From NCBI RefSeq assembly GCF_036507355.1, contig NZ_AP027879.1: 47,389 nt of DNA. One strand, given 5' to 3'. The stretch's first letter is position 1; each line of letters opens with the position of its first letter. The DNA comes from Escherichia coli. GTDB lineage: Bacteria > Pseudomonadota > Gammaproteobacteria > Enterobacterales > Enterobacteriaceae. The position numbers and the translations under genes are program-made. The notes under the pieces are model-generated. The model was not told the DNA's origin. It was given only the letters and a program-made list of their open reading frames with translations, and ran no database searches. This document shows positions 1 to 22,369 of this stretch, one piece after another.

Positions 1-66
1 CTATTAGCCACACTCGCAAGCCAAGCAGAGTCGGCTTAAATTCTATTGAGTGTTGTAACTACTAGC

Positions 67-1072: not shown

Positions 1073-1085
1073 GAGGAATTCTGAA

Positions 1086-1748: not shown

Positions 1749-1767
1749 TAATATCAATACCATCTAT

Positions 1768-1786
1768 AAATCTTTACATTGTAAAG
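1768..1786. promoter_or_regulatory. 19-bp palindrome ATCTTTACATTGTAAAGAT between parA and the RHH gene
   Basis: Perfect inverted repeat with the same TCTTTAC core as the upstream array. Confidence 0.35.
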
Positions 1787-1845
1787 ATAATATAAAGATA
1801 GTATGATATTTACTATTAATGCATACCGTACAAGGGGAAATTGTC

Positions 1846-2127: not shown

Positions 2128-2151
2128 CCATAGAAGCATGGATGAAAATCT

Positions 2152-3129
2152 ATGAGATATTTAACCGAATTGATCTGTGACCTCTACAGGTTGACAGATC
2201 ACCATAAACTGACCACAGCAACGTTTAAAAATCTTGCTGATATTAAGTTATTTAAACCTACAGCAGATGCAGACACCATATTGCAGCTTGAAAATATATT
2301 TAGCGAATACTCACTGAGATATATTGACAAGGATCTGGCTGAAATTCTGAGCAACTTAATAACTACAGATAAGAAACACTCTCTGGACTTCGATTTTAAC
2401 AAAATACAATCTCTGACTGACTCGAAAAGTTTCGGTTGTGGATGGAGCAAGGTAATAAATGGTAGTTGGTTCAAAGATCTTTATTCTTGGGGAGAGGGGA
2501 TGTATCCTGCCGAAAATCTGAAAGCTGAAAATATTTTAGACTGGAAAGATAATATATGGCACATTGAGCATGAAGGTTTCCCCCCACGCCCCCCTATTAA
2601 TGTTAAATATTATTCTTGGTTTGACCGATATGTAGCTTCAAACAGTGGTGGCTCACATCATGCAGCAATGGTTGTATATCAATCAGTCAGAGACGGGTTA
2701 GAGTATAAAAGAGAAGCTGTTATTAAACAACTGAGTATAGACCCAGGCACTGTTGAAATACTTGATAAGAATTACTATTCATTCATATTCCAGATCAAAA
2801 CCCTTAATAAAGAAACTAGAATTTATACATCTGAATACGAGTTTACAGATGCTTTAAAAGACTTTGGACAAAACAGACATACCATACTTAAACCTGTTAA
2901 TTACGTTTCCAACATAAAATTAGTATTTATTCCAAAAGATGCATTAAAAACAAATAGCGAGACATTCCGCAACTGGTTTCATTCTGCAATTAGCTGCGGA
3001 AAAATAATATCACTCCCTGATTATCTGAAAAATCCAGCACATTATCATACACTTCATTACTCACATGAAGTAGACTCAATAACACTTGGCGACCCAAGCA
3101 GAAAATTTAAACTGAAAGGAGATTCTTAG
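2152..3129 (+). CDS. Hypothetical protein, 325 aa, AT-rich, no recognised family
   Basis: Long uninterrupted ORF; no motif I can assign. Confidence 0.6.
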   Translation: MRYLTELICDLYRLTDHHKLTTATFKNLADIKLFKPTADADTILQLENIFSEYSLRYIDKDLAEILSNLITTDKKHSLDFDFNKIQSLTDSKSFGCGWSKVINGSWFKDLYSWGEGMYPAENLKAENILDWKDNIWHIEHEGFPPRPPINVKYYSWFDRYVASNSGGSHHAAMVVYQSVRDGLEYKREAVIKQLSIDPGTVEILDKNYYSFIFQIKTLNKETRIYTSEYEFTDALKDFGQNRHTILKPVNYVSNIKLVFIPKDALKTNSETFRNWFHSAISCGKIISLPDYLKNPAHYHTLHYSHEVDSITLGDPSRKFKLKGDS

Positions 3130-3482
3130 CTTTTATATAAAAAATCAATGTTATCATTTGTCAGAAGATCAGCGAGGGTAATACATTCAAGAACCACAAT
3201 ATTTGTTCCTTCCAACAAACTGGCATCAAGTATCTTATCGAAGCTGATAATCATCATTGGCTTGCGTTGTGTTAAATCAAAGATTACCAATGGAAGTATT
3301 ACACTGTTAATTAATTCAAACTCTTTAAAGAAAGCATCAGTGCCATACTCACTGGCTGGAAAAAGAATCTCAATTAATCTCACACCATAAAAAACATGGT
3401 AGTTTTCTTTAAGGTTATCCTTTAAAATATTAACAGCCTTAGTATATTTTTCGTTAATAAACTCTCTCACCTGATATTCCAT
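3126..3482 (-). CDS. Hypothetical protein, about 119 aa, convergent with the 325-aa ORF
   Basis: Likely start MEYQVREF at 3482 preceded by GGAG; ORF track extends to 3551; stop codons of the two genes overlap in ttag at 3126-3129. Confidence 0.5.
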   Translation of the reverse strand: MEYQVREFINEKYTKAVNILKDNLKENYHVFYGVRLIEILFPASEYGTDAFFKEFELINSVILPLVIFDLTQRKPMMIISFDKILDASLLEGTNIVVLECITLADLLTNDNIDFLYKS

Positions 3483-3618
3483 AAAATTCTCCGACAAGAA
3501 CCGACTGTAGGTCACCGGGCAAACGTTGCAGAATGGCGTCAGAGACGTCATTTTGCGGCGTTTGCCCTATCCTGCATCGCAGTGAAAAGGCAGGGACTGG
3601 CATAACTGCTGAGTAGCA

Positions 3619-3882
3619 TCATTGCTGGCTTATCTCGCTACTGTTCTCGGTGCTTTCGTCCGCAGGTTCGGGAACAAGTAACTTGTGCCAAGGCATAGTT
3701 TTGTTGAGCAGCTCCATCAGAGGCTCAGCCAGCAGTCCCAAAATCCAGGTTGCCGTAATCACCGGTATAGTCAGATTTTGTGGCGTCCATAACTGGTGAT
3801 CGAGATGATACCAAGTGATGACACACAAAATACCACCCAGCCAGAATACAGCCCATTTAAACGCACCAAGAATGGCTAACAC
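3619..3882 (-). CDS. Small hydrophobic membrane protein; possibly the C-terminal part of a gene interrupted by an in-frame TGA
   Basis: 87-aa hydrophobic ORF with GTG start; an in-frame upstream ORF (ATG at 4065, MAKIYQFPQGEERAKF, 41 codons) ends at TGA 3942-3940. Confidence 0.45.
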   Translation of the reverse strand: MLAILGAFKWAVFWLGGILCVITWYHLDHQLWTPQNLTIPVITATWILGLLAEPLMELLNKTMPWHKLLVPEPADESTENSSEISQQ

Positions 3883-4104
3883 AAAAACAAAGATAAAATG
3901 TAAAACACTCGCGACAAGAAGACGAAGATAAAACCATCCTCAGCCAAGCCACTTAACAAAAGTGCTCCCTGTTTTCACTGCAAAACGTTTCTTACGCTCC
4001 CTGGCAATTTCTTTCCTGAATTTAGCACGTTCTTCCCCCTGAGGGAATTGATAGATTTTAGCCATGAGCTACCTCATTTCGATCTCAAAACGAAGTTTAT
4101 GCAA

Positions 4105-4941
4105 TTATCCTCTGAAACCGTATGGTATTCTGATATCTAAGCCCTCACTTTCTTTATCTATTTTATAAGAAAACCTTAGCTTTGATGCTCTTCTTGCGAC
4201 TCTCTCAACGATTTTAACTTCGAGATGATTAATCTCTGTATATTGATTTATTTTTTCAATATTTTTTTGCAGAAAAACCTTATTAAAATCCTTAAAATTC
4301 TGATAAAGGTAAACTTTTTCGCCATTATCTATTCTGAATAATTCAAGTTCATCCTTTAATACATCTACTTCAATGTCGAAAAATGTCTTTTTACCACTGC
4401 TGTATTGTTTCCTGATAAACTGATAAAGCATATTTGAATTTTGATCAGCGAGTCTTACAGACGATATCAAAACCTGAGTAGTGTAAGAATCCTTTAACAT
4501 CGTGATATATGGCTCAATGACATGTGAAAAAGCAATATCAATATATCCTTCACTTTCAACATAATCACAAAACGCAGTCAGGTTCATAAGCCTGACTGCA
4601 TCAGAAGGTAATTTACCTCTCTTCTTCGTATGTCCAGAGCTTTGATTGCCCTGAGGTGTGAGAAGTTGATTTCGAGGAATGCGAATAACACTGGCCTGAA
4701 GTTCTTCTGCCCCCTCTTTCAACTGCCGGTAAGCACCTGTTACATCAATATCAGCGATAAATGCATATTCCCGAGCCGTAATACGAAAGGTTGCCCCCTC
4801 AGATAACTCTTCACGTGAATCAATCTGCGCCATAGCCATAAACAAAATTCTTCTGGCAGACAAAGGCAACGATGAGAATGTGCTGTTAATTTCATTTCTG
4901 TGGCGAATTTTTGTTTTCTTTGTAACGCTCAGTAAGTTCAT
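4105..4941 (-). CDS. repB: Rep_3-family iteron-plasmid replication initiator
   Basis: 278 aa; family assigned from overall resemblance to iteron-plasmid initiators; iterons and DnaA boxes lie directly upstream. Confidence 0.85.
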   Translation of the reverse strand: MNLLSVTKKTKIRHRNEINSTFSSLPLSARRILFMAMAQIDSREELSEGATFRITAREYAFIADIDVTGAYRQLKEGAEELQASVIRIPRNQLLTPQGNQSSGHTKKRGKLPSDAVRLMNLTAFCDYVESEGYIDIAFSHVIEPYITMLKDSYTTQVLISSVRLADQNSNMLYQFIRKQYSSGKKTFFDIEVDVLKDELELFRIDNGEKVYLYQNFKDFNKVFLQKNIEKINQYTEINHLEVKIVERVARRASKLRFSYKIDKESEGLDIRIPYGFRG

Positions 4942-5193
4942 ACATTACCTGTGGTTTTTAAGTTCTGATGGTGAAATCATAACCACAAAGGCGGAAATAT
5001 GTAAAGTGGTTTATCCACCTTATGTATTTCCACCAAAACACGGATCACATGAAAGAATTTTTATCATTTATATTCAATATGATAGAAATGCGCAGGTATC
5101 CACCTTTTAACGTCATACGTTAAATTAGAGCACTATAAAGAACTAAAGAAATGAAGATACAAAGATACGAATATCTGAATAAAAACAGAAAAA

Positions 5194-5313
5194 TGCGTAC
5201 CCATCCACCTTTCAGTGCGTACCCATCCACCTTTCAGTGCGCAGCCATCCACCTTTCATGAAAATTACAGTGCGTACCCATCCACCTTTCAGTGCGTACC
5301 CATCCACCTTTCA
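5194..5313. repeat. Five 22-bp iterons (TGCGTACCCATCCACCTTTCAG) of the Rep_3 replicon
   Basis: Five near-identical direct repeats, two plus one plus two with an 11-bp spacer. Confidence 0.75.
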
Positions 5314-5484
5314 TTTTGAGGCGACAAAAAACAACACCTATCTTAATGAAATTATTGATAAAAAAGCTGGCACAATGTTTGCAGAATAAGTTAAAGTAAG
5401 TTAAAGATCTTAAAGTAGATCTACCGATCTACATTTAAGATCTTAAAAACAAGAAGTTTAATAAGCAAAAAAACACAAAAAATC

Positions 5485-5532
5485 TGTGGATAACTCTGCT
5501 CAAAACAAAAAATTCACAGCGCCTGTGGATAA
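5485..5532. promoter_or_regulatory. Two DnaA boxes (TGTGGATAA) beside an AT-rich stretch; part of oriV
   Basis: TTATCCACA consensus at 5485-5493 and 5524-5532; AT-rich region 5340-5480. Confidence 0.5.
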
Positions 5533-6174
5533 CTTTGCGTAAACCCGGAGGACAGATCACTCTGAACCAAGACAACCACACATAAAAACAATATGCTCAT
5601 TTTTTAACCACTGTGCGTAAGTGCCTAATGTAATCCCTGTGCTATTCCGCTTCCTCGCTCACTAACTCGCTACACTCGGTCGTTCGGCTGCGGCGAGCGG
5701 TGTCTCCTTTCTCAAAACCAGAAGAGTTCAGCTCATACGATCCGTTGATTGATCCTTTTTGGATCTTTCACTGAGAAGCCCTGAATCGCTTTCTGCCGCT
5801 TCGTTCGATACAACCATGGTGAAACCATGCGAAATCGAAAAAATCGCTCAGAATGCGATACAGCGCGTTTTAGAGGGTATTTACAAAACAGTCGTTGCCT
5901 TGAGGAAATTTTGATCAAGATTGAACTCCTATCCGGATCATGGCAACAGATCACAGCAACAAGGCCGCTAAAAAGCGTTGAGCGGCGTTAAAAACCGTTA
6001 AACCGTAGCTGACTACAACGAAACGGGAAAAAACGCTCAGAACGCGTTACAGAGCGTTTTAAGGCGATGTCGGAAAGAGCCATATCTCACCTGTTCTGAT
6101 GTTTTTCTCAACATAAGCACTTTTAAGAGTGCTTTTAAAGATGCTATTATGCCAATGAGACAAGCGGAGGGCTT

Positions 6175-6426
6175 ATGAGCTATCAAATTCTGACAACTAC
6201 AGCGGCCAGTATTACTGACCTGAAAAAAAATCCTATGGGAACCGTAGCTGAAGGTGAAGGGGACGCTGTTGCGATCCTGAACCGAAACGAACCGGCGTTC
6301 TATTGCGTTCCACCAAAACTTTACGCCTACTATCGGGAACTCGCTGAAGATGCTGAGTTAAACGCTGTTGCTGATGAGCGCATGAAAAACCCGGAAATTG
6401 TGAAGGTTAACCTGGATGACCTATGA
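6175..6426 (+). CDS. stbD: Phd/YefM-family antitoxin
   Basis: 83 aa; overlaps the downstream toxin gene in typical TA arrangement. Confidence 0.85.
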   Translation: MSYQILTTTAASITDLKKNPMGTVAEGEGDAVAILNRNEPAFYCVPPKLYAYYRELAEDAELNAVADERMKNPEIVKVNLDDL

Positions 6427-6697
6427 ACTGGCTTTTGACCGTAGAGCACTGAAGGAATGGCAGAAACTCGGCCACACCATCCGTGAACAATTCAAAAAGA
6501 AACTGGCAGAACGGCTGGAAAATCCACGCGTACCCGCAGCCCGGTTACATGGTCATGCTGATCGCTATAAAATCAAACTTCGTGCATCTGGCTACAGACT
6601 TGTATACCAAGTCATTGATGAGAAAGTCGTTTTACTCGTTATTGCCGTTGGAAGAAGGGAAAGCAGCGAAGTCTATCAGATCGCAGATTTGCGCTAA
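6416..6697 (+). CDS. stbE: RelE/ParE-family toxin
   Basis: 93 aa; 11-bp overlap with stbD. Confidence 0.85.
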   Translation: MTYELAFDRRALKEWQKLGHTIREQFKKKLAERLENPRVPAARLHGHADRYKIKLRASGYRLVYQVIDEKVVLLVIAVGRRESSEVYQIADLR

Positions 6698-6771
6698 GAT
6701 TAATCATCAAATGATTGGTGATGCTGCCAACTTACTGATTTAGTGTATGATGGTGTTTTTGAGGTGCTCCA

Positions 6772-7047
6772 GTGGCTTCTGTTTCTATCAGCTGTCCCTC
6801 CTGTTCAGCTACTGACGGGGTGGTGCGTAACGGCAAAAGCACCGCCGGACATCAGCGCTATCTCTGCTCTCACTGCCGTAAAACATGGCAACTGCAGTTC
6901 ACTTACACCGCTTCTCAACCCGGTACGCACCAGAAAATCATTGATATGGCCATGAATGGCGTTGGATGCCGGGCAACAGCCCGCATTATGGGCGTTGGCC
7001 TCAACACGATTTTACGTCACTTAAAAAACTCAGGCCGCAGTCGGTAA
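6772..7047 (+). CDS. insA: IS1 InsA
   Basis: 91-aa zinc-finger protein [16 protein letters not shown]. Confidence 0.85.
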
Positions 7048-7469
7048 CCTCGCGCATACAGCCGGGCAGTGACGTCATCGTCTGCGCGGAAATGGACGAA
7101 CAGTGGGGCTATGTCGGGGCTAAATCGCGCCAGCGCTGGCTGTTTTACGCGTATGACAGGCTCCGGAAGACGGTTGTTGCGCACGTATTCGGTGAACGCA
7201 CTATGGCGACGCTGGGGCGTCTTATGAGCCTGCTGTCACCCTTTGACGTGGTGATATGGATGACGGATGGCTGGCCGCTGTATGAATCCCGCCTGAAGGG
7301 AAAGCTGCACGTAATCAGCAAGCGATATACGCAGCGAATTGAGCGGCATAACCTGAATCTGAGGCAGCACCTGGCACGGCTGGGACGGAAGTCGCTGTCG
7401 TTCTCAAAATCGGTGGAGCTGCATGACAAAGTCATCGGGCATTATCTGAACATAAAACACTATCAGTAA
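6966..7469 (+). CDS. insB: IS1 InsB frame (expressed as InsAB by -1 frameshift)
   Basis: InsB-like translation in the -1 frame overlapping the insA 3' end. Confidence 0.8.
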
Positions 7470-7484
7470 GTTGGAGTCATTACC

Positions 7485-7787
7485 AACCAGTTCACCACCT
7501 ACTCGCTCCGCGATTGTGGCAGTCTTCGAAATCCCCGGACGATCCGCCTTTATGAAAGTCTTGCTCAATTCAAATCTTCAGGCTTATGGGTTACTACTCA
7601 TGCTTGGTTAAATGACCGTTTCGTCTTACCGGAATCCCAGCAGAAGAACTTGGCAGAGTTGAAACGATCTTTCCTTGATCCTGCACTCAAGCAGATAAAT
7701 GAGAAAACACCTTTACTTGCTAAGTATAGTATTGATGATTCAGGAAAATTTCTGTTCTCAATAATTGATAAGCAAAATCCCGTCTGA
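7485..7787 (+). pseudogene. repA: 3' remnant of a second replication initiator gene, 5'-truncated by IS1
   Basis: Open frame from the IS1 junction encoding a Rep-like C-terminus (WLNDRFVLPESQQKNLAELKRSF...) followed by 37-bp iterons. Confidence 0.5.
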
Positions 7788-7837
7788 CATAAATCAGCAC
7801 ACATGAGCCTGTCATTTGACAAATTTTTGTCATGAAG

Positions 7838-8370
7838 ATGGGCGGATTTCCACACAGCACCGGCGCCCGGTAAGGTGGGCGGATTTCCACACAGCACCGG
7901 CGCCCGGCAAGGTGGGCGGATTCCCACACGGCACCGGCGCGCGGCAAGGTGGGCGGATTCCCACACGGCACCGGCGCGCGGCAAGGTGGGCGGATTTCCA
8001 CACAGCACCGGCGCCCGGCAAGGTGGGCGGATTCCCACACGGCACCGGCGCGCGGCAAGGTGGGCGGATTCCCACACGGCACCGGCGCGCGGCAAGGTGG
8101 GCGGATTTCCACACAGCACCGGCGCCCGGCAAGGTGGGCGGATTCCCACACGGCACCGGCGCGCGGCAAGGTGGGCGGATTCCCACACGGCACCGGCGCG
8201 CGGCAAGGTGGGCGGATTTCCACACAGCACCGGCGCCCGGCAAGGTGGGCGGATTCCCACACGGCACCGGCGCGCGGCAAGGTGGGCGGATTCCCACACG
8301 GCACCGGCGCGCGGCAAGGTGGGCGGATTTCCACACGGCACCGGCGCCCGGCAAGGTGGGCCGATTCCCA
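7838..8370. repeat. About 14 tandem 37-bp iterons (GGGCGGATTYCCACACRGCACCGGCGCSCGGCAAGGT); IncN-like origin array
   Basis: Head-to-tail direct repeats with two alternating variants; no spacers. Confidence 0.75.
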
Positions 8371-8861
8371 TATCGACATGTATGTAGCTTGTGTTATCTG
8401 TGGATTGTGCAGCTCAGCGGGTCGCTGGTCGTATGGCGGAGTGTCCCCCGTAACCGGCCGCGTGCGGCCGCTAACGCGCAGTACGGCGCCGCGTCCCGCA
8501 GACGGGCCGCCGTTCCCGCGCGCAGCACTGCGCACCCCCGTGGGGGACGTACGGCAGCTGCGTGGCGGTGAGCGGGATTAGGGCTTTGCAGCTACCGTGT
8601 TAAGTTCCCTGGTGTCGCTGAAATAGTTGATGAACATCCCCCTAAGCGTCAGCAGCAAGCTGCCGCCGCTTAGGCCCCGGAAATCACGCCCTTTACGTCG
8701 TAAACGCCGTAAAGCCCGCTCACCGGGGTTAAAAGGGATTACTTTGACTTCTTCATTGCTGTTCGCGAGTTAAGGCTAATCAGGGCAGGGGGTAGGGTGG
8801 CAGAATTTATAGCCCGGCAACCGGCTACGCCGGGCTTTCGGCGCCATTTTACAACACAGAC

Positions 8862-9918
8862 GGCTTTGTTGAATAAATCGAACTTTTGCTGAGTTGAAGG
8901 ATCAGATCACGCATCTTCCCGACAACGCAGACCATTCCGTGGCAAAGCAAAAGTTCAAAATAACCAACTGGCCCACCTACAATAAAGCCCTCATCAACCG
9001 TGGCTCCATAACTTTCTGGCTGGATGATGAAGCTATTCAGGCCTGGTATGAGTCGGCAACGCCTTCATCACGGGGAAGACCTCAGCGCTATTCTGATCTC
9101 GCCATCACCACCGTTCTGGTCATTAAACGCGTGTTCAGGTTGACCCTGCGGGCTGCACAGGGTTTTATTGATTCCATTTTTACACTGATGAATGTTCCGT
9201 TGCGCTGCCCGGATTACACCAGTGTCAGCAAGCGCGCAAAGTCGGTTAATGTCAGTTTCAAAACGTTCACCCGGGGTGAAATCGCGCATCTGGTGATTGA
9301 TTCCACCGGGCTGAAGGTCTTTGGTGAAGGCGAATGGAAAGTCAAAAAGCATGGCCAGGAACGCCGTCGTATATGGCGAAAGTTGCATCTGGCAGTTGAC
9401 AGCAACACACATGAAATCATCTGTGCAAACCTGTCGCTGAACAATGTGACGGACTCAGAAGCCTTCCCGGGTCTTATCCGGCAGACTCACAGAAAAATCA
9501 GGGCAGCATCGGCAGACGGCGCTTACGACACCCAACTCTGTCACGATGAACTGCGGCGTAAGAAAATCAGCGCGCTTATCCCGCCCCGAAAAGGCGCGGG
9601 TTACTGGCCCGGTGAATATGCAGACCGTAACCGTGCTGTTGCGAATCAGCGGCTGACCGGGAGTAATGCGCGGTGGAAATGGACAACAGATTACAACCGT
9701 CGCTCGATAGCGGAAACGGCGATGTACCGGGTAAAACAGCTGTTCGGAGGTTCACTGACACTGCGTGACTACGATGGTCAGGTTGCAGAGGCTATGGCCC
9801 TGGTACGAGCGCTGAACAAAATGACGAAAGCAGGTATGCCTGAAAGCGTGCGTATTGCCTGAAAACACAACCCGCTACGGGGGAGACTTACCCGAAATCT
9901 GATTTATTCAACAAAGCC
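8862..9918 (+). mobile_element. IS903-group insertion sequence (IS5 family), complete, 1057 bp
   Basis: 18-bp terminal inverted repeats GGCTTTGTTGAATAAATC; length matches IS903. Confidence 0.85.
8939..9862 (+). CDS. tnpA: IS903 transposase, 307 aa
   Basis: GTG start at VAKQKFKITNW; DDE transposase of the IS5 family. Confidence 0.85.
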   Translation: MAKQKFKITNWPTYNKALINRGSITFWLDDEAIQAWYESATPSSRGRPQRYSDLAITTVLVIKRVFRLTLRAAQGFIDSIFTLMNVPLRCPDYTSVSKRAKSVNVSFKTFTRGEIAHLVIDSTGLKVFGEGEWKVKKHGQERRRIWRKLHLAVDSNTHEIICANLSLNNVTDSEAFPGLIRQTHRKIRAASADGAYDTQLCHDELRRKKISALIPPRKGAGYWPGEYADRNRAVANQRLTGSNARWKWTTDYNRRSIAETAMYRVKQLFGGSLTLRDYDGQVAEAMALVRALNKMTKAGMPESVRIA

Positions 9919-10001
9919 GCGCGGGGCTAACAGGTAAGATGAAATTAAGGTTTTACGAACACTGCCACTGTAATTAATTACCGCTACTTTCATAAATCAC
10001 C

Positions 10002-10388
10002 TCAGAATTTTTTGTTGAACTTCTTAGGGTCGAAATTCTCACCGATTTTCTTGAAGAATTCTTTATCAATAATGCCGGGACTCTCTGCTTTTTTACTTTC
10101 CTGCACTTCAGGCTCAGACGGTTGTGTATTGTGCAATACACTTTCCGCTGCACCCTTCGCGCTACTCTTATCATGCGTATTGTGCAATACATTTTTTCGG
10201 TTTTGCCGCGTTCTATACAGTGCCATCTCAAGCCCTTTGGCTGTTACCGAAAAGCTGTATTCGCTGTCGAGGATTTCAGCAATTTCATGCCGCGTTAGCC
10301 CTCTGTCCAGCCAGTTCTCGATTTCATTTAGGCGCAATCTGACAGCAGCCGATAAGTTGCGGGGTTTCAGATCTGCTGGTTTATTCAT
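10002..10388 (-). CDS. Hypothetical DNA-binding protein with predicted HTH, 128 aa
   Basis: N-terminal region LDRGLTRHEIAEILD; lysine-rich C-terminus; repeat array directly upstream. Confidence 0.5.
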   Translation of the reverse strand: MNKPADLKPRNLSAAVRLRLNEIENWLDRGLTRHEIAEILDSEYSFSVTAKGLEMALYRTRQNRKNVLHNTHDKSSAKGAAESVLHNTQPSEPEVQESKKAESPGIIDKEFFKKIGENFDPKKFNKKF

Positions 10389-10445
10389 AACCCCCTCCGT
10401 TGTATGAAAATGACTCTACAACACTCGTAAGAAGGGGTCAATCGA

Positions 10446-10610
10446 GTTTTGTAGTTTATCTGTAGTTTTATTGTAGTCTATTTGTAGTCTGTCACGTTTT
10501 TTGTAGTTTATTTGTAGTTTTATTGTAGTCTATTTGTAGTCTTACAACACTAAGGCAAAACGTTTTTTGTAGTTTATCTGTAGTTTATCTGTAGTTTTTG
10601 GTTGCTCAGA
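10446..10610. repeat. Array of about 11 direct repeats of an 11-bp unit (YTGTAGTYTWT)
   Basis: Contiguous repeats upstream of the HTH gene; 22-bp palindrome ATGGTCATGCAAGCATGACCAT follows at 10610-10631. Confidence 0.6.
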
Positions 10611-10936
10611 TGGTCATGCAAGCATGACCATCAAAGAATAGGACGCTTTTTAGCCAAATGCCCCTTAACCTACGGAGATCGCCCTACCAAAAAAAGATGA
10701 TTTTTTATCCCTTAACCTGCTATACACCTAACGCAGCGTGATAAATCACGCTATCGCACTGATTTAAAAGAAAAAAAACAAAATTTAGCCATGCTGCGGT
10801 ATTACCCAGGTATTACAAATCAAATCTAAATTACTGATTTAAATAACTTTTTATTTATTACTTTGGTAATACTATGATTTCACCGTATTAGACACCCTTT
10901 TTTCGTTTAAAAAATGCACAAATTGAGGACTGAATG

Positions 10937-11870
10937 GGCTTTGTTGAATAAATCGAACTTTTGCTGAGTTGAAGGATCAGATCACGCATCTTCCCGACAA
11001 CGCAGACCGTTCCGTGGCAAAGCAAAAGTTCAAAATAACCAACTGGCCCACCTACAATAAAGCCCTCATCAACCGTGGCTCCATAACTTTCTGGCTGGAT
11101 GATGAAGCTATTCAGGCCTGGTATGAGTCAGCAACACCTTCTTCACGAGGCAGACCTCAGCGCTATTCTGACCTTGCCATCACGACTGTGCTGGTCATTA
11201 AACGCGTATTCAGGCTGACCCTGCGCGCTGCGCAGGGCTTTATTGATTCCATTTTTTCTCTGATGAACGTTCCGCTACGCTGCCCGGATTACAGCTGTGT
11301 CAGCAGGCGGGCAAAGTCGGTTAACGTCAGTTTCAAAACGTTCACCCGGGGTGAAATCGCGCATCTGGTGATTGATTCCACCGGGCTGAAGGTCTTTGGT
11401 GAAGGCGAGTGGAAAGTCAAAAAGCATGGCCAGGAACGCCGTCGTATATGGCGAAAGTTGCATCTGGCAGTTGACAGCAACACACATGAAATCATCTGTG
11501 CAGACCTGTCGCTGAACAATGTGACGGACTCAGAAGCCTTCCCGGGTCTTATCCGGCAGACTCACAGAAAAATCAGGGCAGCATCGGCAGACGGCGCTTA
11601 CGACACCCGGCTCTGTCACGATGAACTGCGGCGTAAGAAAATCAGCGCGCTTATCCCTCCCCGAAAAGGTGCGGGTTACTGGCCCGGTGAATATGCAGAC
11701 CGTAACCGTGCAGTGGCTAATCAGCGAATGACCGGGAGTAATGCGCGGTGGAAATGGACAACAGATTACAACCGTCGCTCGATAGCGGAAACGGCGATGT
11801 ACCGGGTAAAACAGCTGTTCGGGGGTTCACTGACGCTGCGTGACTACGATGGTCAGGTTGCGGAGGCTAT
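10937..11870 (+). mobile_element. Second IS903-group copy, 3'-truncated, lacks right IR
   Basis: Left IR intact; homology ends near 11870 where the Tn5393-type IR begins; several aa differences from copy 1. Confidence 0.75.
11014..11870 (+). pseudogene. tnpA: IS903-group transposase, 3'-truncated
   Basis: Reading frame runs into Tn5393 IR sequence after aa about 286. Confidence 0.6.
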
Positions 11871-11950
11871 GGGGTCGTTTGCGGGAGAGGGCGAAATCCT
11901 ACGCTAAGGCTTTGGCCAGCGATATTCTCCGGTAAGATTGATGTGTTCCC
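11870..11950. repeat. Tn5393-type 81-bp terminal inverted repeat
   Basis: GGGGTCGTTTGCGGGA... immediately downstream of the strB stop; a second, slightly divergent copy at 28388-28468. Confidence 0.55.
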
Positions 11951-11976
11951 AGGGGATAGGAGAAGTCGCTTGATAT

Positions 11977-12688
11977 CTAGTATGACGTCTGTCGCACCTG
12001 CTTGATCGCGGCCGCGATAGCTAGATCGCGTTGCTCCTCTTCTCCATCCGCGTTCCAAGCTGCGGAAAGGCACCCATAAGCGTACGCCTGGTCGAGCAGG
12101 CGACGCGGATCGACGTCCAGCGCACGAGAGAATGCGTCCGCCATCTGTGCAATGCGTCTAGGATCGAGACAAAGGTCGTCTCTGTCAGCCGGATCGTAGA
12201 ACATATTGGCGGCGCCAAAGCCCACTTCACCGACCAGACCGACGGGATCTATCACCAGCCAGCCGCGACTGGAGAACATGATGTTTTCATGATGCAGATC
12301 GCCATGTAGCCCACGCAGTTCCGAGGCATTGCTCATCATTTGATCGGCTATAATCGCCGCGTGGACGTAGTCAGTTTGACAACCTGCGTTTTGATCATCG
12401 CGCGCCCGCTGAAACAAAGCTGCAAAGCGATCCCGGATCGGGAGAAGGGCAGAAGGCAGGGGTTCCTCAGATGCGGCATACAGCTTCGCCATTAGTTCCG
12501 CTGCAATTTCGGTCGCCTGGTAGTCGCCGTGCTCGGCAACGATGTGAGAGAGCATTCGCTCCCCGGCATATTCGAGCAACATCAGATTGTTCTCACGACC
12601 GAGCAACCGGACTGCTCCCCTCCCATTGCGCCATACCAGATAGTCGGCCCCGCGCAGTTCATCAGCAATGTCTTCTATAGGTTTCAAT
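11977..12688 (-). pseudogene. strB: aph(6)-Id (strB), 5'-truncated by IS26
   Basis: Matches the C-terminal 237 aa of the full StrB at 27526-28362; N-terminal codons derive from the IS26 end. Confidence 0.85.
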
Positions 12689-13508
12689 GGCACTGTTGCA
12701 AAGTTAGCGATGAGGCAGCCTTTTGTCTTATTCAAAGGCCTTACATTTCAAAAACTCTGCTTACCAGGCGCATTTCGCCCAGGGGATCACCATAATAAAA
12801 TGCTGAGGCCTGGCCTTTGCGTAGTGCACGCATCACCTCAATACCTTTGATGGTGGCGTAAGCCGTCTTCATGGATTTAAATCCCAGCGTGGCGTTGATT
12901 ATCCGTTTCAGTTTGCCATGATCGCATTCAATCACGTTGTTCCGGTACTTAATCTGTCGGTGTTCAACGTCAGACGGGCACCGGCCTTCGCGTTTGAGCA
13001 GAGCAAGCGCGCGACCATAGGCGGGCGCTTTATCCGTGTTGATGAATCGCGGGATCTGCCACTTCTTCACGTTGTTGAGGATTTTACCCAGAAACCGGTA
13101 TGCAGCTTTGCTGTTACGACGGGAGGAGAGATAAAAATCGACAGTGCGGCCCCGGCTGTCGACGGCCCGGTACAGATACGCCCAGCGGCCATTGACCTTC
13201 ACGTAGGTTTCATCCATGTGCCACGGGCAAAGATCGGAAGGGTTACGCCAGTACCAGCGCAGCCGTTTTTCCATTTCAGGCGCATAACGCTGAACCCAGC
13301 GGTAAATCGTGGAGTGATCGACATTCACTCCGCGTTCAGCCAGCATCTCCTGCAGCTCACGGTAACTGATGCCGTATTTGCAGTACCAGCGTACGGCCCA
13401 CAGAATGATGTCACGCTGAAAATGCCGGCCTTTGAATGGGTTCATGTGCAGCTCCATCAGCAAAAGGGGATGATAAGTTTATCACCACCGACTATTTGCA
13501 ACAGTGCC
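12689..13508 (-). mobile_element. IS26, complete, 820 bp (copy a)
   Basis: 14-bp terminal IRs GGCACTGTTGCAAA; Tnp26 ORF. Confidence 0.95.
12741..13445 (-). CDS. tnp26: IS26 transposase Tnp26, N at position 184
   Basis: [18 protein letters not shown]...; residue 184 is N ([10 protein letters not shown]). Confidence 0.95.
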   Translation of the reverse strand: MNPFKGRHFQRDIILWAVRWYCKYGISYRELQEMLAERGVNVDHSTIYRWVQRYAPEMEKRLRWYWRNPSDLCPWHMDETYVKVNGRWAYLYRAVDSRGRTVDFYLSSRRNSKAAYRFLGKILNNVKKWQIPRFINTDKAPAYGRALALLKREGRCPSDVEHRQIKYRNNVIECDHGKLKRIINATLGFKSMKTAYATIKGIEVMRALRKGQASAFYYGDPLGEMRLVSRVFEM

Positions 13509-13561
13509 CGCTCCAGATAGTCATCACCGATGAATCAGGCTCCAGTCGAACGGAGGAACTG

Positions 13562-14890
13562 ATGACAATCCAGAAATCAGGGGAGACCCGGAACGACATC
13601 GGATTATCGGTGTCAGAATCCAAGCTGTTGCTGAATACGGTCCAGCAGTCGGTGGTCCAGCTGCAGGCAGACGAATATACTCAACACCATATCCGGTGCC
13701 CTCACTGCCTTGCTGCGCGCAGAATCAAAGGCAAACAGAAAATACGGTACCGGACGCTGTTTGGCGTTATTCCGGTATCCGGGCTTCGGGTGTACCGGTG
13801 CCGTTGTGAAGAGAGTGATACAAAGACAGTCAGTTTGCTCAGCGACTGGGCCGGCGATTATTCTCACCCGGCACTGAAATATATTGAAACCCGCTGGGCC
13901 TCGATGATCTCCTATGAAATGACGACTCGTCTGCTGAAAGATATTCTGCCGGTGGGCCACAGCCTGAATGCCTCAACGGTGAGGAATCATTTATGCCAGG
14001 TGGCGCAGCGTCTTGACGCTGAGGCTGAAGCTCATTCAGGTTTTCTTTCCGGCTGCCCCCGCGACTGGGGGAACCTGCCCAGGCCAGGAAAACCGCTTGT
14101 GGTGGGTATAGATGGTGGTTATGTTCGCGATCGGGATGACAAAAAGCGTAATTTTGAAATTATTGCCGGGAAGTCTTTTTCCGTTGGTGCGCCTGCTGAC
14201 ACCCGCCGCTTCGGTTTTGTTCAGAAGGATGACTGTCATCCGGAACGCAGGCTCATGACCCACCTTTCAGCGCAGGGAATGCAGGCCAACCAGCAGATAT
14301 TTTTTCTGTCCGACGGCGCGGATAATCTCAGGGACCTCCAGTTCGGTATGTACCCTGAGTCAACGCATGTGCTGGACTGGTTTCATATCACCATGAGGCT
14401 GAAGGTGCTCATGCAATATGCCCGGGGACTGCTGGTATCAGATCCAGAGGCGGGGAGTAAAGTTCTGGCACTGCTGGAAAGCATTAAACGATATCTCTGG
14501 CATGGCAATGTTGTCGCTGCGCTGGAACATATTGATAATTGCGTTATGTATTGCGATGACCCTGAACTCAGCTATCCTAGCCTGAAATCCCTGCAAAAAC
14601 ATCTGGATGAAATGTATACCTACATCCGGAATAATAAGATGATGATCCCAAACTACGGCGAAATGCGTCGGTACGGAGAGCCGGTATCAACCGCGTTTGT
14701 GGAATCCACGATCAATGAAGTGATCGCCAGACGAATGGCCAAAAAGCAGCAGATGCAGTGGAGCAGAAAAGGGGCTCATTATTTGTTACAGACCCGGACC
14801 GCCGTTTTGAATAACGAACTGCAGGATAAATTTGTCTGCTGGTATCCGGGTTTTCAAAGTGACGGGAAGGGACCAGCGATGGCAGCATAG
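13562..14890 (+). CDS. Transposase with N-terminal zinc ribbon, about 443 aa; ISKra4-like (ISKpn19-like), family uncertain
   Basis: ATG after GGAGG just beyond the IS26 end; CPHC...CRC motif; qnrS1 neighbourhood. Confidence 0.5.
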   Translation: MTIQKSGETRNDIGLSVSESKLLLNTVQQSVVQLQADEYTQHHIRCPHCLAARRIKGKQKIRYRTLFGVIPVSGLRVYRCRCEESDTKTVSLLSDWAGDYSHPALKYIETRWASMISYEMTTRLLKDILPVGHSLNASTVRNHLCQVAQRLDAEAEAHSGFLSGCPRDWGNLPRPGKPLVVGIDGGYVRDRDDKKRNFEIIAGKSFSVGAPADTRRFGFVQKDDCHPERRLMTHLSAQGMQANQQIFFLSDGADNLRDLQFGMYPESTHVLDWFHITMRLKVLMQYARGLLVSDPEAGSKVLALLESIKRYLWHGNVVAALEHIDNCVMYCDDPELSYPSLKSLQKHLDEMYTYIRNNKMMIPNYGEMRRYGEPVSTAFVESTINEVIARRMAKKQQMQWSRKGAHYLLQTRTAVLNNELQDKFVCWYPGFQSDGKGPAMAA

Positions 14891-14913
14891 CTCACGCTGC
14901 CCCAATATTTTTT

Positions 14914-15351
14914 ATGCTCTCGGTCGTATGGAAGCTGGACCGCCTCGGTCGTGATCTTCGTCATCTCATTAATACAGTGCACGACCTGACCGCGAGGGGG
15001 ACCGGTCTGAAAGTGCTGACCGGTCACGGGGCGACTATCGACACAACAACGGCCGCTGGCAAGCTTGTCTTCGGTATCTTTGCCGCACTGGCGGAGTTTG
15101 AGCGCGAACTGATTGCTGAAAGAACGACTGCAGGTCTGGCATCAGCAAGAGCCCGTGGGCGGAACGGCGGCCGACCTTATAAAATGACGCCAGTCAAACT
15201 GCGACTGGCAATGGCATCAATGGGACAATCAGAAACAAAGGTCAGTACGCTATGCCAGGAACTTGGGATAACCCGGCAAACTTTGTACAGGCATATTTCC
15301 CCTGTTGGTCAACTGCGGGCGGACGGGATCAAGCTGCTCAACCGTGGATAA
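14914..15351 (+). pseudogene. tnpR: Serine resolvase (tnpR-like), 5'-truncated
   Basis: Frame begins mid-domain at LDRLGRD and lacks the catalytic Ser region; C-terminal HTH retained. Confidence 0.6.
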
Positions 15352-15408
15352 TTTGAACGGACGGAAAAATCTGGGGTTCCGGCGTAGTACCCCTATCACC
15401 TCCACATT

Positions 15409-15422
15409 TTTGCAACAGTGCC
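15409..15422. repeat. Solo 14-bp IS26/IS6-family terminal repeat (TTTGCAACAGTGCC)
   Basis: Exact match to the IS26 IR with no adjoining IS26 sequence. Confidence 0.4.
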
Positions 15423-15669
15423 TTATAAATGGCAGCCTTATGTTTACTTGCCAAGATGGGCTACCATATGATGTTTTATACTGAGCAATATTAATATTAT
15501 CTTTAATGGAAAAATTAAGCCCACTAAGTGACCCACTGCTATATGGCTCTATTGTGAAGACGCCTGAGGGTAAAAATTTATACATGGTTGTCCCTATGTC
15601 TATTATTGCAAGGTTGACAATATTATTCGTTTTATAAATTTGAGCGTTTAAAATCACACATCAAAGCAA

Positions 15670-16326
15670 TTAGTCAGGATAAACAACAATACCCAGTGCT
15701 TCGAGAATCAGTTCTTGCTGCCAGGCTGCAATTTTGATACCTGATGTATCGACTTTGCGGGGATCTAAACCGTCGAGTTCGGCGTGGCATAAATTGGCAC
15801 CCTGTAGGCTAAATTGCCCCCAGACATCTTCGGAAAAAACACCTCGACTTAAGTCTGACTCTTTCAGTGATGCACCCGCTAGGTTCGTTCCTATCCAGCG
15901 ATTTTCAAACAACTCACATTTTTCTAAACAAACCCTCTCCATATTGGCATAGGAAAGATTACATCCAGAAATAAATGCTGAGCAAAAGTACATACGATTA
16001 CTCACTTGATGGGCAAAGTTTGTTCGGGAAAAGTTGGCACCTTTTAAATCACACGCACGGAACTCTATACCGTAGCAATTGGCATTACTGAAGTTTGCCA
16101 TCGCAAGTTGGCATTGTTGGAAACTTGCATCACGAAGATCTGCGACATCAAAGTGGCAGCCTTCGATATCACCCTGTTCAATGAACTTGCAGTTGACGAA
16201 TGTCGTATCACGCAAGTTAGCACGTCGAAAGTCGCTGCGAATGAATGTGCAAGCGGTGAAGGTGAGATCACTTAAGTCTTTATGTGAAAAGTTGTGGTGC
16301 CGATATGTATGATTGTAGGTTTCCAT
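15670..16326 (-). CDS. qnrS1: Pentapeptide-repeat quinolone-resistance protein QnrS1
   Basis: 218 aa starting METYNHTYRHHNFSHKDL; pentapeptide repeats throughout. Confidence 0.95.
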   Translation of the reverse strand: METYNHTYRHHNFSHKDLSDLTFTACTFIRSDFRRANLRDTTFVNCKFIEQGDIEGCHFDVADLRDASFQQCQLAMANFSNANCYGIEFRACDLKGANFSRTNFAHQVSNRMYFCSAFISGCNLSYANMERVCLEKCELFENRWIGTNLAGASLKESDLSRGVFSEDVWGQFSLQGANLCHAELDGLDPRKVDTSGIKIAAWQQELILEALGIVVYPD

Positions 16327-16693
16327 GAGTACTCCTTGTTGAAAGGAGGGCTAGACTACCATTATACATATGCCAAGACATTAAAATAAAAGCCTGTTAC
16401 ATCAACACATTACAACCCCTCAATTTACCTGTTTTAAGTGGTCAAATTGGCGCGTAGAGCGCCTATCGCTCTTGCATTGGCACGCGGCCCTGTTGAAAAA
16501 AGTTATTCGCTTTAGATAGGGTTAGGAGAGCCGTGCTTCGCCGGTAAAAAATCGGACTATCCGACGCAGGGCGGACTCATCGGCGGAGAAGCAAACTTTG
16601 ACTATATCTCCCTACACTTGGAAGAGGGCTAGACTGGCCCCATAGATCACCAGACACTTCGACTCTCTTAAAATAAGAGGTAGTCTTGGAACT

Positions 16694-17089
16694 ATGTTTA
16701 ATACCAGTCAGAACGATAAGATGGTTGAAGTGTTATCAGGACCTGAGCGGCGTCGGCGTCGTACACCGCAGGAAAAAATTGCCATTATTCAGCAGACTAT
16801 GGAGCCCGGTATGACCGTGTCTCATGTCGCGCGCCTGCATGGCATCAATGCAAACCAGATATTCAAATGGCGCAAGCAATATTAAGACGGTTCACTGACG
16901 GCTGTTGCATCGGGCGAGGAAGTGGTGCCGGCCTCCGAACTCGCTGCCGCCAATAAGCAAATTCGCGAACTCCAGCGCCTTCTGGGCAAAAAGACGATGG
17001 AAGCCGAGATACTCAAAGAGGCCGTGGAGTTCGGCCGGGCAAAAAAATGGATTGCGCATGCGCCCTCGTTGCCTGGGAACGACGAATAA
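16694..17089 (+). pseudogene. IS2-like orfA containing an in-frame TAA at 16883-16885
   Basis: MFNTSQ...KWRKQY stop [12 protein letters not shown]...PGNDE; same frame continues for 67 codons after the stop. Confidence 0.5.
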
Positions 17090-17202
17090 GCGACGTTTGC
17101 AGAAGTCTTGGCGTGTCGCGTGCGCAGTTGAGCATTCGGGTTCACCGGCCATCTGACTGACAGGATCGCAGACGGCAGCCCCGTTCTGACGATACCACCG
17201 TA

Positions 17203-17745
17203 TTGTCCCGGATAAACATGGCGGTGGCTGACCTGCCGACGTATGGTTATCGCCGTGTGTGGGCGCTGCTGCGACGGGAGTCGGAGCGGGACGGCCTGCC
17301 TGTGGTTAATGCAAAGCGGGTGTATCGCATTATGAGAACGCATAATCTGCTTCTTGAACGTAAACCCGCTGATCCTTGCCGTAAGCGGGCCCATAAGGGG
17401 CGCGTAGCAGTAGCGGAAAGTAACCGGCGCTGGTGCTCAGATGGCTTTGAGTTCCGCTGTGATAATGGCGAAAAGCTGCGGGTGACCTTCGCGCAGGACT
17501 GCTGCGACAGGGAGATCATTGACTGGGCAGCGAGCACCGGAGGCTATGACAAAGAAACGGTGCAGGATGTCATGCTGGGTGCGGTGGAAAAACGCTTCGG
17601 AAGGCAGTTGCCAACAGTGCCGGCGTTCGCCCGGTTGCTGGGACTGGAGCCTTGTACGACAGCAGTGCGAAGCCCGGAAAGCAATGGCATAGCAGAAAGC
17701 TTCGTGATGACGATAAAACGGGACTACATCAGCATCAGGATTTTA
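17203..17745 (+). pseudogene. IS2-like orfB, 3'-truncated
   Basis: 183-aa catalytic-domain fragment ending where the Tn3 IR starts. Confidence 0.6.
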
Positions 17746-17783
17746 GGGGTCTGACGCTCAGTGGAACGAAAACTCACGTTAAG
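17746..17783. repeat. Tn3/Tn2 38-bp terminal inverted repeat
   Basis: GGGGTCTGACGCTCAGTGGAACGAAAACTCACGTTAAG. Confidence 0.85.
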
Positions 17784-19081
17784 CAACGTTTTCTGCCTCT
17801 GACGCCTCTTTTAATGGTCTCAGATGTCCTTTGGTCACCAGTTCTGCCAGCGTGAAGGAATAATGGCCGAGCATATTGATATGTCCGTGGCAAAGCGGGG
17901 AGAGGCGTGCGATATCTTCATCATTCAGTGTTTCACCCTGCGCCCGGAGATGATCCAGGGCTGCCTGCATATAAATAGTGTTCCATAACACGACGGCGTT
18001 AGTGACCAGCCCCAGTGTGCCCAGTTGATCTTCCTGACCGTCGGTATATCGTTTTCTTATCTCACCTTTTTGACCGTGACAGATGGCTCTGGCAACGGCA
18101 TGGCGACTTTCTCCCCGATTAAGCTGGGTCAGAATGCGCCGGCGGTAATCTTCATCATCAATATAATTAAGCAGATACAGCGTTTTGTTGATGCGCCCCA
18201 CTTCAATGATTGCCTGAGTCAGTCCGGAAGGACGTTCACTTTTCAGCAATGAACGGACCAGCACTGAAACCTGTACTTTGCCCAGCTTCAGGGAGCCAGC
18301 GGTCCGGATCATTTCGTCCCACTGAAGGACTATTTTTCGGGGATCTGATTGCCCTCTGGCAATATCATTCAGCACGCCATAGTCGGCATCATGGTCCATT
18401 CGCCAGAAAACCGAAGCACCGGCATCAGCCAGGCGTGGAGAAAACTGGTATCCCAGCAGCCAGAAAAGGCCAAAGACAAGTTCGCTGGCACCTGCTGTAT
18501 CGGTCATAATTTCGGTTGGATTCAGCCCGGTCTCCTGTTCCAGAAGACCTTCCAGCACAAAGATAGAGTCCCTCAGCGTCCCCGGTATAACGATGCCATG
18601 AAAGCCGGAATACTGATCGGACACAAAGTTGTACCAGGTGATCCCTCTGTTATTACCAAAGTATTTGCGGTTCGGTCCGGCATTGATTGTTCTGACTGGC
18701 GTAACAAAGCGCATTCCATCTGCAGATGCCACTTCTCCTCCACCCCATATCTGTGCCAGTGGCAGCGTTGCCTGAAAATCAACCAGTCTGGCATTAGCGC
18801 TGGTGATAGTTTCAGCCCGCAGATAGTTCGCTTTTGTCCAGTTCAGCCGGTGTCGGGTCAGTGCAGGAACATTTGATCTGATCAGTGGTTCCAGACCGAT
18901 ATTGCAGGCTTCAGCCATCAGCACGGCGCTGATGCTGACGGGCAGATCATCAACTCTGGCACTGGCTTCACTAGCATGGAAAAACTCATCAGCAAATCCG
19001 GTATGGGCGTTAATTTCGAGCAGCAACTCCGTTAAATCCACCGGAGGGAGTAGATCACTGATCATTTTGCTCAGTCGTTTC
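17779..19081 (-). pseudogene. tnpA: Tn3-family transposase TnpA (Tn2/Tn3), 5'-truncated by IS26
   Basis: 435-aa C-terminal portion ending inside the Tn3 IR; N-terminus replaced by IS26. Confidence 0.85.
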
Positions 19082-19901
19082 GGCACTGTTGCAAATAGTC
19101 GGTGGTGATAAACTTATCATCCCCTTTTGCTGATGGAGCTGCACATGAACCCATTCAAAGGCCGGCATTTTCAGCGTGACATCATTCTGTGGGCCGTACG
19201 CTGGTACTGCAAATACGGCATCAGTTACCGTGAGCTGCAGGAGATGCTGGCTGAACGCGGAGTGAATGTCGATCACTCCACGATTTACCGCTGGGTTCAG
19301 CGTTATGCGCCTGAAATGGAAAAACGGCTGCGCTGGTACTGGCGTAACCCTTCCGATCTTTGCCCGTGGCACATGGATGAAACCTACGTGAAGGTCAATG
19401 GCCGCTGGGCGTATCTGTACCGGGCCGTCGACAGCCGGGGCCGCACTGTCGATTTTTATCTCTCCTCCCGTCGTAACAGCAAAGCTGCATACCGGTTTCT
19501 GGGTAAAATCCTCAACAACGTGAAGAAGTGGCAGATCCCGCGATTCATCAACACGGATAAAGCGCCCGCCTATGGTCGCGCGCTTGCTCTGCTCAAACGC
19601 GAAGGCCGGTGCCCGTCTGACGTTGAACACCGACAGATTAAGTACCGGAACAACGTGATTGAATGCGATCATGGCAAACTGAAACGGATAATCAACGCCA
19701 CGCTGGGATTTAAATCCATGAAGACGGCTTACGCCACCATCAAAGGTATTGAGGTGATGCGTGCACTACGCAAAGGCCAGGCCTCAGCATTTTATTATGG
19801 TGATCCCCTGGGCGAAATGCGCCTGGTAAGCAGAGTTTTTGAAATGTAAGGCCTTTGAATAAGACAAAAGGCTGCCTCATCGCTAACTTTGCAACAGTGC
19901 C
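19082..19901 (+). mobile_element. IS26, complete (copy b)
   Basis: 14-bp IRs, 820 bp. Confidence 0.95.
19145..19849 (+). CDS. tnp26: IS26 transposase Tnp26, N at position 184
   Basis: Identical protein to copy a. Confidence 0.95.
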   Translation: MNPFKGRHFQRDIILWAVRWYCKYGISYRELQEMLAERGVNVDHSTIYRWVQRYAPEMEKRLRWYWRNPSDLCPWHMDETYVKVNGRWAYLYRAVDSRGRTVDFYLSSRRNSKAAYRFLGKILNNVKKWQIPRFINTDKAPAYGRALALLKREGRCPSDVEHRQIKYRNNVIECDHGKLKRIINATLGFKSMKTAYATIKGIEVMRALRKGQASAFYYGDPLGEMRLVSRVFEM

Positions 19902-20600
19902 GTTTATTCTTCCTATACGTGCCGCGTTCCAGGCGGCGACTATGAGGGCTATGTCGATGCCCATGTGCGCCGGCTGGAGGCGCTACGCCGGGCCGGTATC
20001 GTCGAGCGGATCGACGCCGACCAATGGCGCATCCCCGATGATCTGGTCAGCCGTGCCGCCGCCCATGACGCCGGCCGAGACAGTCAGGCCAGCGTTCGCG
20101 TCCTTTCCCCGGTCGATCTGAACAAACAGATCGGATCGGACGGCGCGACCTGGCTGGACCGGCGGCTGATCCACGGCGAGACGGCCGACCTTGCGCCAAC
20201 CGGCTTCGGGCAACAAGTCCGCGAAGCCATGGACCAGCGCCGCGAGCACCATATCGAACAGGGCGACGCCACCCGCAGCCGGGACAGCCGCGTCTTCTAC
20301 CGGCGCAACCTTCTCGCCATCCTGCGGGAGCGCGAGGTAGCCGGCGTCGGATCGGATATGGCTTTGAGTAAGGGCCTGCCGTTCCGCGCCGCCACGGACG
20401 GCGAGAGCGTCAGCGGCAAGTTTACCGGAACCGTGCATCTATCGAGCGGCAAGTTCGCCGTGGTCGAGAAATCCCATGAGTTCACCCTTGTCCCGTGGCG
20501 GCCGATCATCGACCGCCAACTCGGCCGCGAGGTTATGGGCATCGTGCAGGGCGGGTCGGTGTCGTGGCAGTTAGGGCGGCAGAGGGGGCTGGAACGCTGA
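19902..20600 (+). pseudogene. Relaxase-like (VirD2-type) C-terminal fragment, as seen upstream of floR
   Basis: Frame is open from the IS26 boundary; no intact start; GC-rich. Confidence 0.4.
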
Positions 20601-20816
20601 GTGCGCCCATGCCGCATTGCGAAGCAAAAGATAATCGGATAAAATGTAGCAATTCATATTCGTAAGCGTGGAGTAATCAGATGGGAAATTCCAAGTCAGC
20701 AGACAAGTAAGCCGCAACAACCAGTATTGTTGTTGCGGCGCTCTGTAAGGCTAGTCTCATCTGATTGCTGACGAGCAGACGTCGCCCGGTATTCCTTAAT
20801 CGAGGGTTGATTCGTC

Positions 20817-22031: not shown

Positions 22032-22058
22032 CCGACGACTGGTAGCAGGCCCGCTCCG

Positions 22059-22364: not shown

Positions 22365-22369
22365 CGGGC

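Follow-up and report, generated by a model that had tools for sequence, protein, structure and literature searches.

Two probably separately acquired Tn5393 ends form an inverted repeat on an IncX1-type multidrug-resistance plasmid

The structure of Tn5393 and the naming of its IS1133-bearing form have been described, as has the divergence of RSF1010-type strAB from the strAB genes borne by Tn5393 (PMC10333595). An 81-bp TIRstr is found with strA/strB within the floR-tetA-strAB-sul2 segment of IncA/C and F33 plasmids (PMC6052338), and IS26 is described as acting by deletion or cointegrate-type events (PMC4196232). We have analysed a stretch of DNA from Escherichia coli (the window, 47,389 bp) in which strB and the neighbouring Tn5393 inverted repeat (IR) occur twice, in opposite orientation. 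The window is probably a complete circular IncX1-type multidrug-resistance plasmid, since its last 300 bases (47090–47389) and first 300 bases (1–300) are contiguous in plasmid pCD58-3-1, with 100% identity over 600 nt.

pCD58-3-1 (NZ_CP050037.1), found in E. coli from a broiler chicken, is a tet(X4) plasmid of IncX1 type with a pir-type rep, ddp1, stbA and relE/phd; about six similar plasmids are in PLSDB. It shares with the window the same backbone and a string of partial IS903B, Tn5393 IR, truncated strB, IS26, ISKpn19, qnrS1 and Tn3; positions 1–19089 of the window are collinear with it at 99.8–99.9% identity. Unlike the window, it carries an ISCR2-estT-tet(X4) region and lacks sul2-strA-strB, and hence the inverted repeat; a search of pCD58-3-1 for a second strB found none. 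Where pCD58-3-1 has 755 bp of Tn3 tnpA, the window has at 19082–31829 about 12.7 kb of IS26-floR-ISCR2-IS26-sul2-strAB-tetR-tet(A). We consider it very probable that two historically separate Tn5393 pieces have come together on one IncX1-type plasmid, the first (copy 1) being an inherited relic and the second (copy 2) belonging to a separate module.

The two copies and the 818-bp inverted repeat

The features of the region, in order along the window, are as follows.

10937–11870, plus strand: IS903B, partial (copy B), the first 934 of 1057 bp, with its left terminal repeat at 10937–10952; the right end is absent from the window
11871–11951, minus strand: Tn5393 terminal inverted repeat, strB side, copy 1, 81 bp, haplotype T-C-T-T-C at five variable IR sites
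11977–12688, minus strand: strB / aph(6)-Id pseudogene (from translation), the last 712 bp, with the first 125 nt (~42 codons) missing; stop codon 11977–11979
12689–13508, minus strand: IS26 cutting strB, 820 bp, with 14-bp ends GGCACTGTTGCAAA
12689–27650: segment between the arms, 14,962 bp, comprising IS26, ISKpn19, qnrS1, part of Tn3 tnpA, IS26, floR, ISCR2, an IS26 fragment, IS26, sul2, strA and the 5' 125 nt of strB (from collinearity with annotated relatives)
19082–19901 (inverted), 24449–25268, 37596–38415 and 40234–41053: other complete IS26 copies
25847–26662, plus strand: sul2 (NCBIfam Sul2, 615 bits against a cutoff of 575)
26723–27526, plus strand: strA / aph(3'')-Ib (NCBIfam APH(3'')-Ib, 635.8 bits against a cutoff of 600)
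27526–28362, plus strand: strB / aph(6)-Id, complete, 278 aa, Glu46Lys (translation; NCBIfam APH(6)-I, 383.6 bits against a cutoff of 325, full profile 1–270)
28388–28468, plus strand: Tn5393 IR, copy 2, 81 bp, haplotype C-C-C-C-T, abutting a Tn1721-type remnant upstream of tetR(A)
28469–30988: flank of copy 2, with the Tn1721-type remnant, tetR(A) (29033–29692, minus) and tet(A) (29714–30988, plus), taken from the annotation under 100% matches and from alignment to relatives

A repeat search of the window identified the arms 11871–12688 (minus) and 27651–28468 (plus) as an 818-nt inverted repeat, 99% complementary, with 14,962 nt between. An earlier note on this DNA had described an inverted, divergent pair of strB-plus-IR copies of about 800 bp, 15 kb apart, and the pair is real, although the outer ends had been placed one base off. 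Its statement that the truncated strB with its IR is nearly identical to the 3' end of the complete sul2-strA-strB cluster is borne out by an ungapped comparison, in which the 818 bp contain exactly five mismatches (99.4% identity). A match of this length and identity is far beyond chance. The same pairwise alignment, which the note had proposed as a means of recognising a simple duplication by identical copies, thus finds copies that are not identical. One of the five mismatches lies in strB (A at 27664 in copy 2, G in the strB sense at 12675 in copy 1) and four lie in the 81-bp IR (28405/11934, 28445/11894, 28451/11888 and 28452/11887), in agreement with the note, in which the IR copies differ at several bases. 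The longest perfect block shared by the arms is 740 bp. On one side homology breaks off sharply at the GGGG tip of the IR (11871 and 28468), on the other where IS26 begins (12689).

The coding part of the second arm is the last 712 bp of the complete strB, which is followed by a 25-bp spacer and then by the 81-bp IR ending ...CGACCCC at 28468. The StrB product of copy 1 scores 332.3 bits against the NCBIfam APH(6)-I equivalog (cutoff 325) and covers profile positions 36–270 only, and the same strB stretch in pCD58-3-1 is annotated by PGAP as "incomplete; missing N-terminus". Copy 1 strB is a pseudogene, because the profile is covered only from 36 to 270 and the N-terminal 42 residues are missing, and copy 1 as a whole is a predicted non-functional relic. 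An open reading frame at 11977–12735 (minus) is predicted to begin at a TTG in the end of IS26 and to encode 252 aa, made up of 16 IS26-derived residues and StrB residues 43–278.

Both strB copies carry the 81-bp IR ending in GGGG that marks the strB side of Tn5393. These 81 bp are the exact extent of matches to the tnpA-side IR (e.g. in pCFSAN059939, where no gene is annotated) and to solo IRs in other plasmids. Each context examined has its own sequence beyond the GGGG tip, which is what a transposon end should show. The strA-strB genes lie directly inside the IR as in Tn5393, strA and strB being whole in copy 2 and copy 1 retaining only the 3' 712 bp of strB. There are two IR copies only in the window, and BLAST of the Tn5393 interior and tnpA end against the window gave no matches to the tnpA end, tnpR or IS1133, so that no autonomous transposon is present. 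Both Tn5393 pieces are immobile remnants.

Around copy 2, the region from the end of strA to the end of tetR (27400–29100) is 100% identical in at least seven other plasmids and is at least 80% covered in 1047 plasmids. The longer sul2-strA-strB-IR stretch, including two variants at 26750 and 27664, is 100% identical in many Klebsiella plasmids. The 27664 variant gives StrB Glu46Lys (IKD for IED) and the 26750 variant is a G-to-A change in strA; both are missing from p9123, pX14-3-tetA and pAb5S9, and the identical stretch is found in E. coli plasmids as well as in many from Klebsiella. The two variants mark a circulating sub-lineage of the sul2-strAB cluster. Between the arms, the sub-segment 12689–25268 (IS26-qnrS1-part of Tn3-IS26-floR-ISCR2-IS26) is found again, as one block, in several E. 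coli plasmids that are unrelated.

Tn5393 insertion, IS26 truncation and the origin of the copies

The earlier note had placed the end of the second IS903 exactly where the IR begins. The element does stop there, at 11870/11871, but this is not its natural end; it is interrupted by Tn5393 at bp 934 of 1057. A search of the window for IS903 terminal repeats found only the left end of this copy, so it is not a complete element. Its transposase belongs to the IS5 family (NCBIfam, 345.8 bits), and the identical sequence in pCD58-3-1 is annotated by PGAP as "IS5-like element IS903B family transposase, incomplete". A complete IS903-like element (copy A) at 8862–9918 differs from copy B by 40 mismatches over 934 bp (95.7% identity).

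The other Tn5393 end is not in the window, and the target-site duplication is read by pairing the junction here with the reciprocal junction in other plasmids. A query joining the tnpA end and IR, GCTAT and IS903B 930–1057 found a 100% match in one piece in at least 15 plasmids, NZ_CP024857 among them, and coverage of at least 80% in 180 plasmids. In the window, IS903B ends ...GCTAT and then passes into the IR at 11866–11871, which pairs with that reciprocal junction. We therefore read GCTAT, present before the IR here and again at the reciprocal junction elsewhere, as the 5-bp target-site duplication typical of Tn3-family transposition. NZ_CP024857.1 (E. coli AR_0011 plasmid) has both: the same IS903B(934)/IR junction and strB, with one base different, and the reciprocal junction in the same record. 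It keeps the whole of strB, and beyond that gene lie strA, IS1133 (containing a group II intron) and tnpR, all of which would have been removed by IS26 in the window. NZ_CP024857 has the uncut ancestral form of copy 1, an IS1133-bearing Tn5393. The junction of partial IS903B with IR-strB occurs in 101 PLSDB records, about seven of which have the same IS26 cut and the others a full strB.

The five IS26 copies are all of 820 bp with the 14-bp terminal repeat GGCACTGTTGCAAA, and there are 0–2 mismatches among them. On the far side of the copy at 12689–13508 lies ISKpn19/qnrS1 and not the rest of strB, and matching 8-bp flanks, as left by a simple insertion, were found at none of the five IS26 copies. 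The truncation of strB is therefore attributed to an IS26-mediated deletion or cointegrate-type event rather than to simple insertion, and the lack of matching flanks at all five copies likewise points to a resistance region shuffled by IS26 through such events. At 24193–25268 the last 256 bp of an IS26, inverted, abut the left end of a complete IS26, which suggests that one IS26 was struck by another and then partly deleted. We also considered whether an intramolecular IS26 inversion could have split a single strB, and rejected it; such an event would not duplicate 818 bp, and the IR haplotypes differ.

The following haplotypes were found at the five variable IR sites.

C-C-C-C-T: copy 2; p9123 and pX14-3-tetA
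T-T-T-T-C: the IS903B-lineage relatives NZ_CP024857 and pCD58-3-1
T-C-T-T-C: copy 1

At 99% identity or more, about 2900 PLSDB records match the IR type of copy 2 and about 1500 that of copy 1. T-T-T-T-C is the usual type among sequences one mismatch away from copy 1. Classical Tn5393 carriers such as pPSR1, R64 and pTP10 have one mismatch from copy 1 over a 140-bp query, and T-T-T-T-C is presumably their IR type. The haplotype does not cleanly separate Tn5393 from sul2-cluster origin, being contradicted by pAb5S9, which has the classical haplotype downstream of sul2-strA-strB, and by pPK5074-tetX, which has the exact haplotype of copy 1 with sul2-strAB. The haplotype alone is no proof of origin, and the case for independent acquisition therefore rests mainly on the flanks.

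These flanks agree with the proposal of the earlier note that two independent strAB-bearing elements are involved. Copy 1 with both its flanks is found, one nucleotide different, in IncX1 plasmids without sul2-strAB; at least seven plasmids have copy 2 and its flanks with 100% identity; and the IR differences correspond to two widespread haplotypes. Over 10900–12760 the window differs from pCD58-3-1, and likewise from NZ_CP024857, at a single base (11919). Since these relatives match at all but 11919 and pCD58-3-1 has no other strB, copy 1 is an inherited relic of this plasmid lineage. The sequence comparison also supports separate acquisition of copies 1 and 2: all but one of the five differences fall in the IR, where they correspond to the two widespread haplotypes.

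Had the plasmid acquired only one copy, then duplicated its strB-IR end in inverted orientation and gathered five mutations, the 99.4% identity of the arms and their common IR tip would also be explained. We nevertheless regard this course of events as very unlikely. Each arm is present with its own flanks separately in other plasmids, and the sister plasmid pCD58-3-1 has copy 1 only. Moreover, four of the five arm differences are haplotypes of hundreds to thousands of unrelated records, which new mutations would not recreate, and the fifth (A at 27664) is common to many other plasmids. We have also to consider an assembly artefact, in which a collapsed or chimeric repeat has put a spurious strB fragment beside IS903B and IS26. 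With five IS26 and two tet(A) copies the region is repeat-dense and hard for assemblers, but every junction of both copies recurs at 99.9–100% identity in independent complete plasmid records, and an artefact is extremely improbable.

Under separate acquisition, an IS1133-bearing Tn5393 would have transposed into IS903B beside stbA on the ancestral plasmid backbone, duplicating GCTAT. A later IS26-mediated event would have removed all inward of strB codon 42, leaving the IR and 712 bp of strB between partial IS903B and IS26, and this relic would then have been inherited vertically, as its presence in sister plasmids such as pCD58-3-1 suggests. The copy 2 module would have arrived with other IS26/ISCR2-associated DNA, copy 2 being the end of what is predicted to be an intact, expressed sul2-strA-strB unit whose IR abuts tetR-tet(A). 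The order of events is inferred, the exact arrangement being absent from PLSDB and complete E. coli genomes: queries of 18–24 kb found neither the same nor the inverted arrangement in either.

Recombination between the copies

An 818-bp repeat that includes 740 bp of perfect match gives RecA ample homology, and a RecA crossover between the arms, which would flip 12689–27650, is feasible, as the earlier note had suggested. The products should again be one full strB, with strA and sul2 upstream, and one truncated strB. No change of phenotype would be expected, as exchange within the homologous strB/IR regenerates the same two forms. The strB pair is not a special substrate, because IS26 too forms inverted pairs, as long as this one and 100% identical (e.g. 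12686–13508 with 19082–19904). Inversion across the five IS26 copies is at least as likely as between the strB copies.

Neither junction of the inversion isomer was found in PLSDB. The best match to the first (IS26 end, truncated strB, copy 2 IR and tetR-side flank) had 94% coverage in three pieces over 1715 bp and a different structure. Best matches to the second (partial IS903B, IR and full strB-strA-sul2) consisted of two pieces with 333 extra bp, which are a complete IS903B plus other DNA, or of strAB-sul2 alone. On both sides, each copy has the neighbours seen in relatives (the parental arrangement); no such inversion has therefore taken place in this lineage.

An inverted repeat flanking a 15-kb segment might also be read as a programmed invertible switch that changes gene expression, but to this we give a close to negligible probability. 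Systems of the Hin, Gin and Fim type have short recombinase-specific sites and change expression on inversion, whereas the arms here are 818-bp relics of a resistance gene and a transposon end. From the anatomy, wherever in them a crossover fell, it would yield a whole strB, preceded as before by strA and sul2, and a truncated one, and neither isomer junction was found in PLSDB.

One small peculiarity is base 11919, at which copy 1 has the copy 2 base and NZ_CP024857, pCD58-3-1 and apparently all the top junction-bearing records do not. It raises the question of whether the two copies have already exchanged sequence, 11919 being copied from copy 2 by short-patch gene conversion, possibly by Vsr-type T:G repair in a transient heteroduplex. 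In favour, 11919 is the sole difference from pCD58-3-1 and NZ_CP024857 over 1.8 kb and carries the copy 2 base. The resulting haplotype is rare: it is found in eight of 4889 matching PLSDB records, and none of the 101 PLSDB records with the junction is 100% identical to that of copy 1. Vsr tolerates NTWGG. The context of the T variant, GTTGG, is one base off the Vsr target CTWGG (PMC2715241). Against conversion, the tract would need to be shorter than 40 bp, as 11894 and 11934 are unconverted, and pPK5074-tetX, with one copy only, bears this haplotype too. The base could have come from a simple T-to-C change or from a donor like pPK5074-tetX by recombination, either of which is at least as likely, and we regard conversion as possible but rather doubtful. 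If conversion did occur, the sequence itself would show directly that such relic repeats recombine in vivo.

Annotation and comparison with known elements

The stretch 11977–12688 should be annotated as an aph(6)-Id pseudogene, lest resistance-gene callers count two strB genes, and IS903B at 10937–11870 as interrupted by Tn5393. The string of partial IS903B, IR, truncated strB and IS26 is a handy marker of this IncX1 plasmid family. With the inverted repeat, five IS26 and two tet(A) copies, short-read assemblies will break or misjoin here, and structural isomers may coexist in culture. Two further repeats are direct: tetR(A)-tet(A) occurs twice in direct orientation about 13.2 kb apart (28724–30960 and 41902–44128), and Tn3-family tnpA fragments form an 850-bp direct repeat (~41051–41902 and 46539–47389, of which the first 300 nt were found in the repeat search). 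Both pairs are substrates for deletion or amplification.

At 7835–8370 there are 14.5 tandem copies of a 37-bp unit beside an IS1-interrupted replication-initiator remnant. The copy number of this array varies among related plasmids and is higher in three of them, including pX14-3-tetA. Iterons of 37 bp have been described in the IncN repA region in one paper, and the array looks like the leftover of a second replicon.

The two-copy arrangement is ordinary plasmid mosaicism, its parts being already in public sequences. Its anatomy is what Tn5393, IS903B and IS26 routinely produce on resistance plasmids, with copy 1 itself public but for one base, and its importance beyond annotation is little.

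Other contexts of the Tn5393 end bear comparison with the two described here. In pPK5074-tetX (NZ_CP072807.1, 3876–4001) the IR abuts IS903 in the same orientation but at bp 125, not 934, which could represent either a second insertion into IS903 or a deletion from the IR tip. In pX14-3-tetA, the 80 bp beside the IR tip (28469–28548 of the window) that are present in the window and most other carriers are missing, apparently through a deletion beside the transposon end. The RSF1010/p9123-type sul2-strA-strB shares the IR haplotype of copy 2 (C-C-C-C-T), and its genes are nearly identical, but its flank beyond the IR is different, and p9123 lacks the variants at 26750 and 27664. The closest correspondence of copy 2 is to the floR-tetA-strAB-sul2 segment known from IncA/C plasmids of the pAR060302 type and from F33:A-:B- plasmids (PMC6052338): seven plasmids carry this module at 100% identity to copy 2 and its flanks. 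Unlike the IncA/C pAR060302 type, the module here lies in an IncX1 plasmid, beside IS26 and ISCR2.
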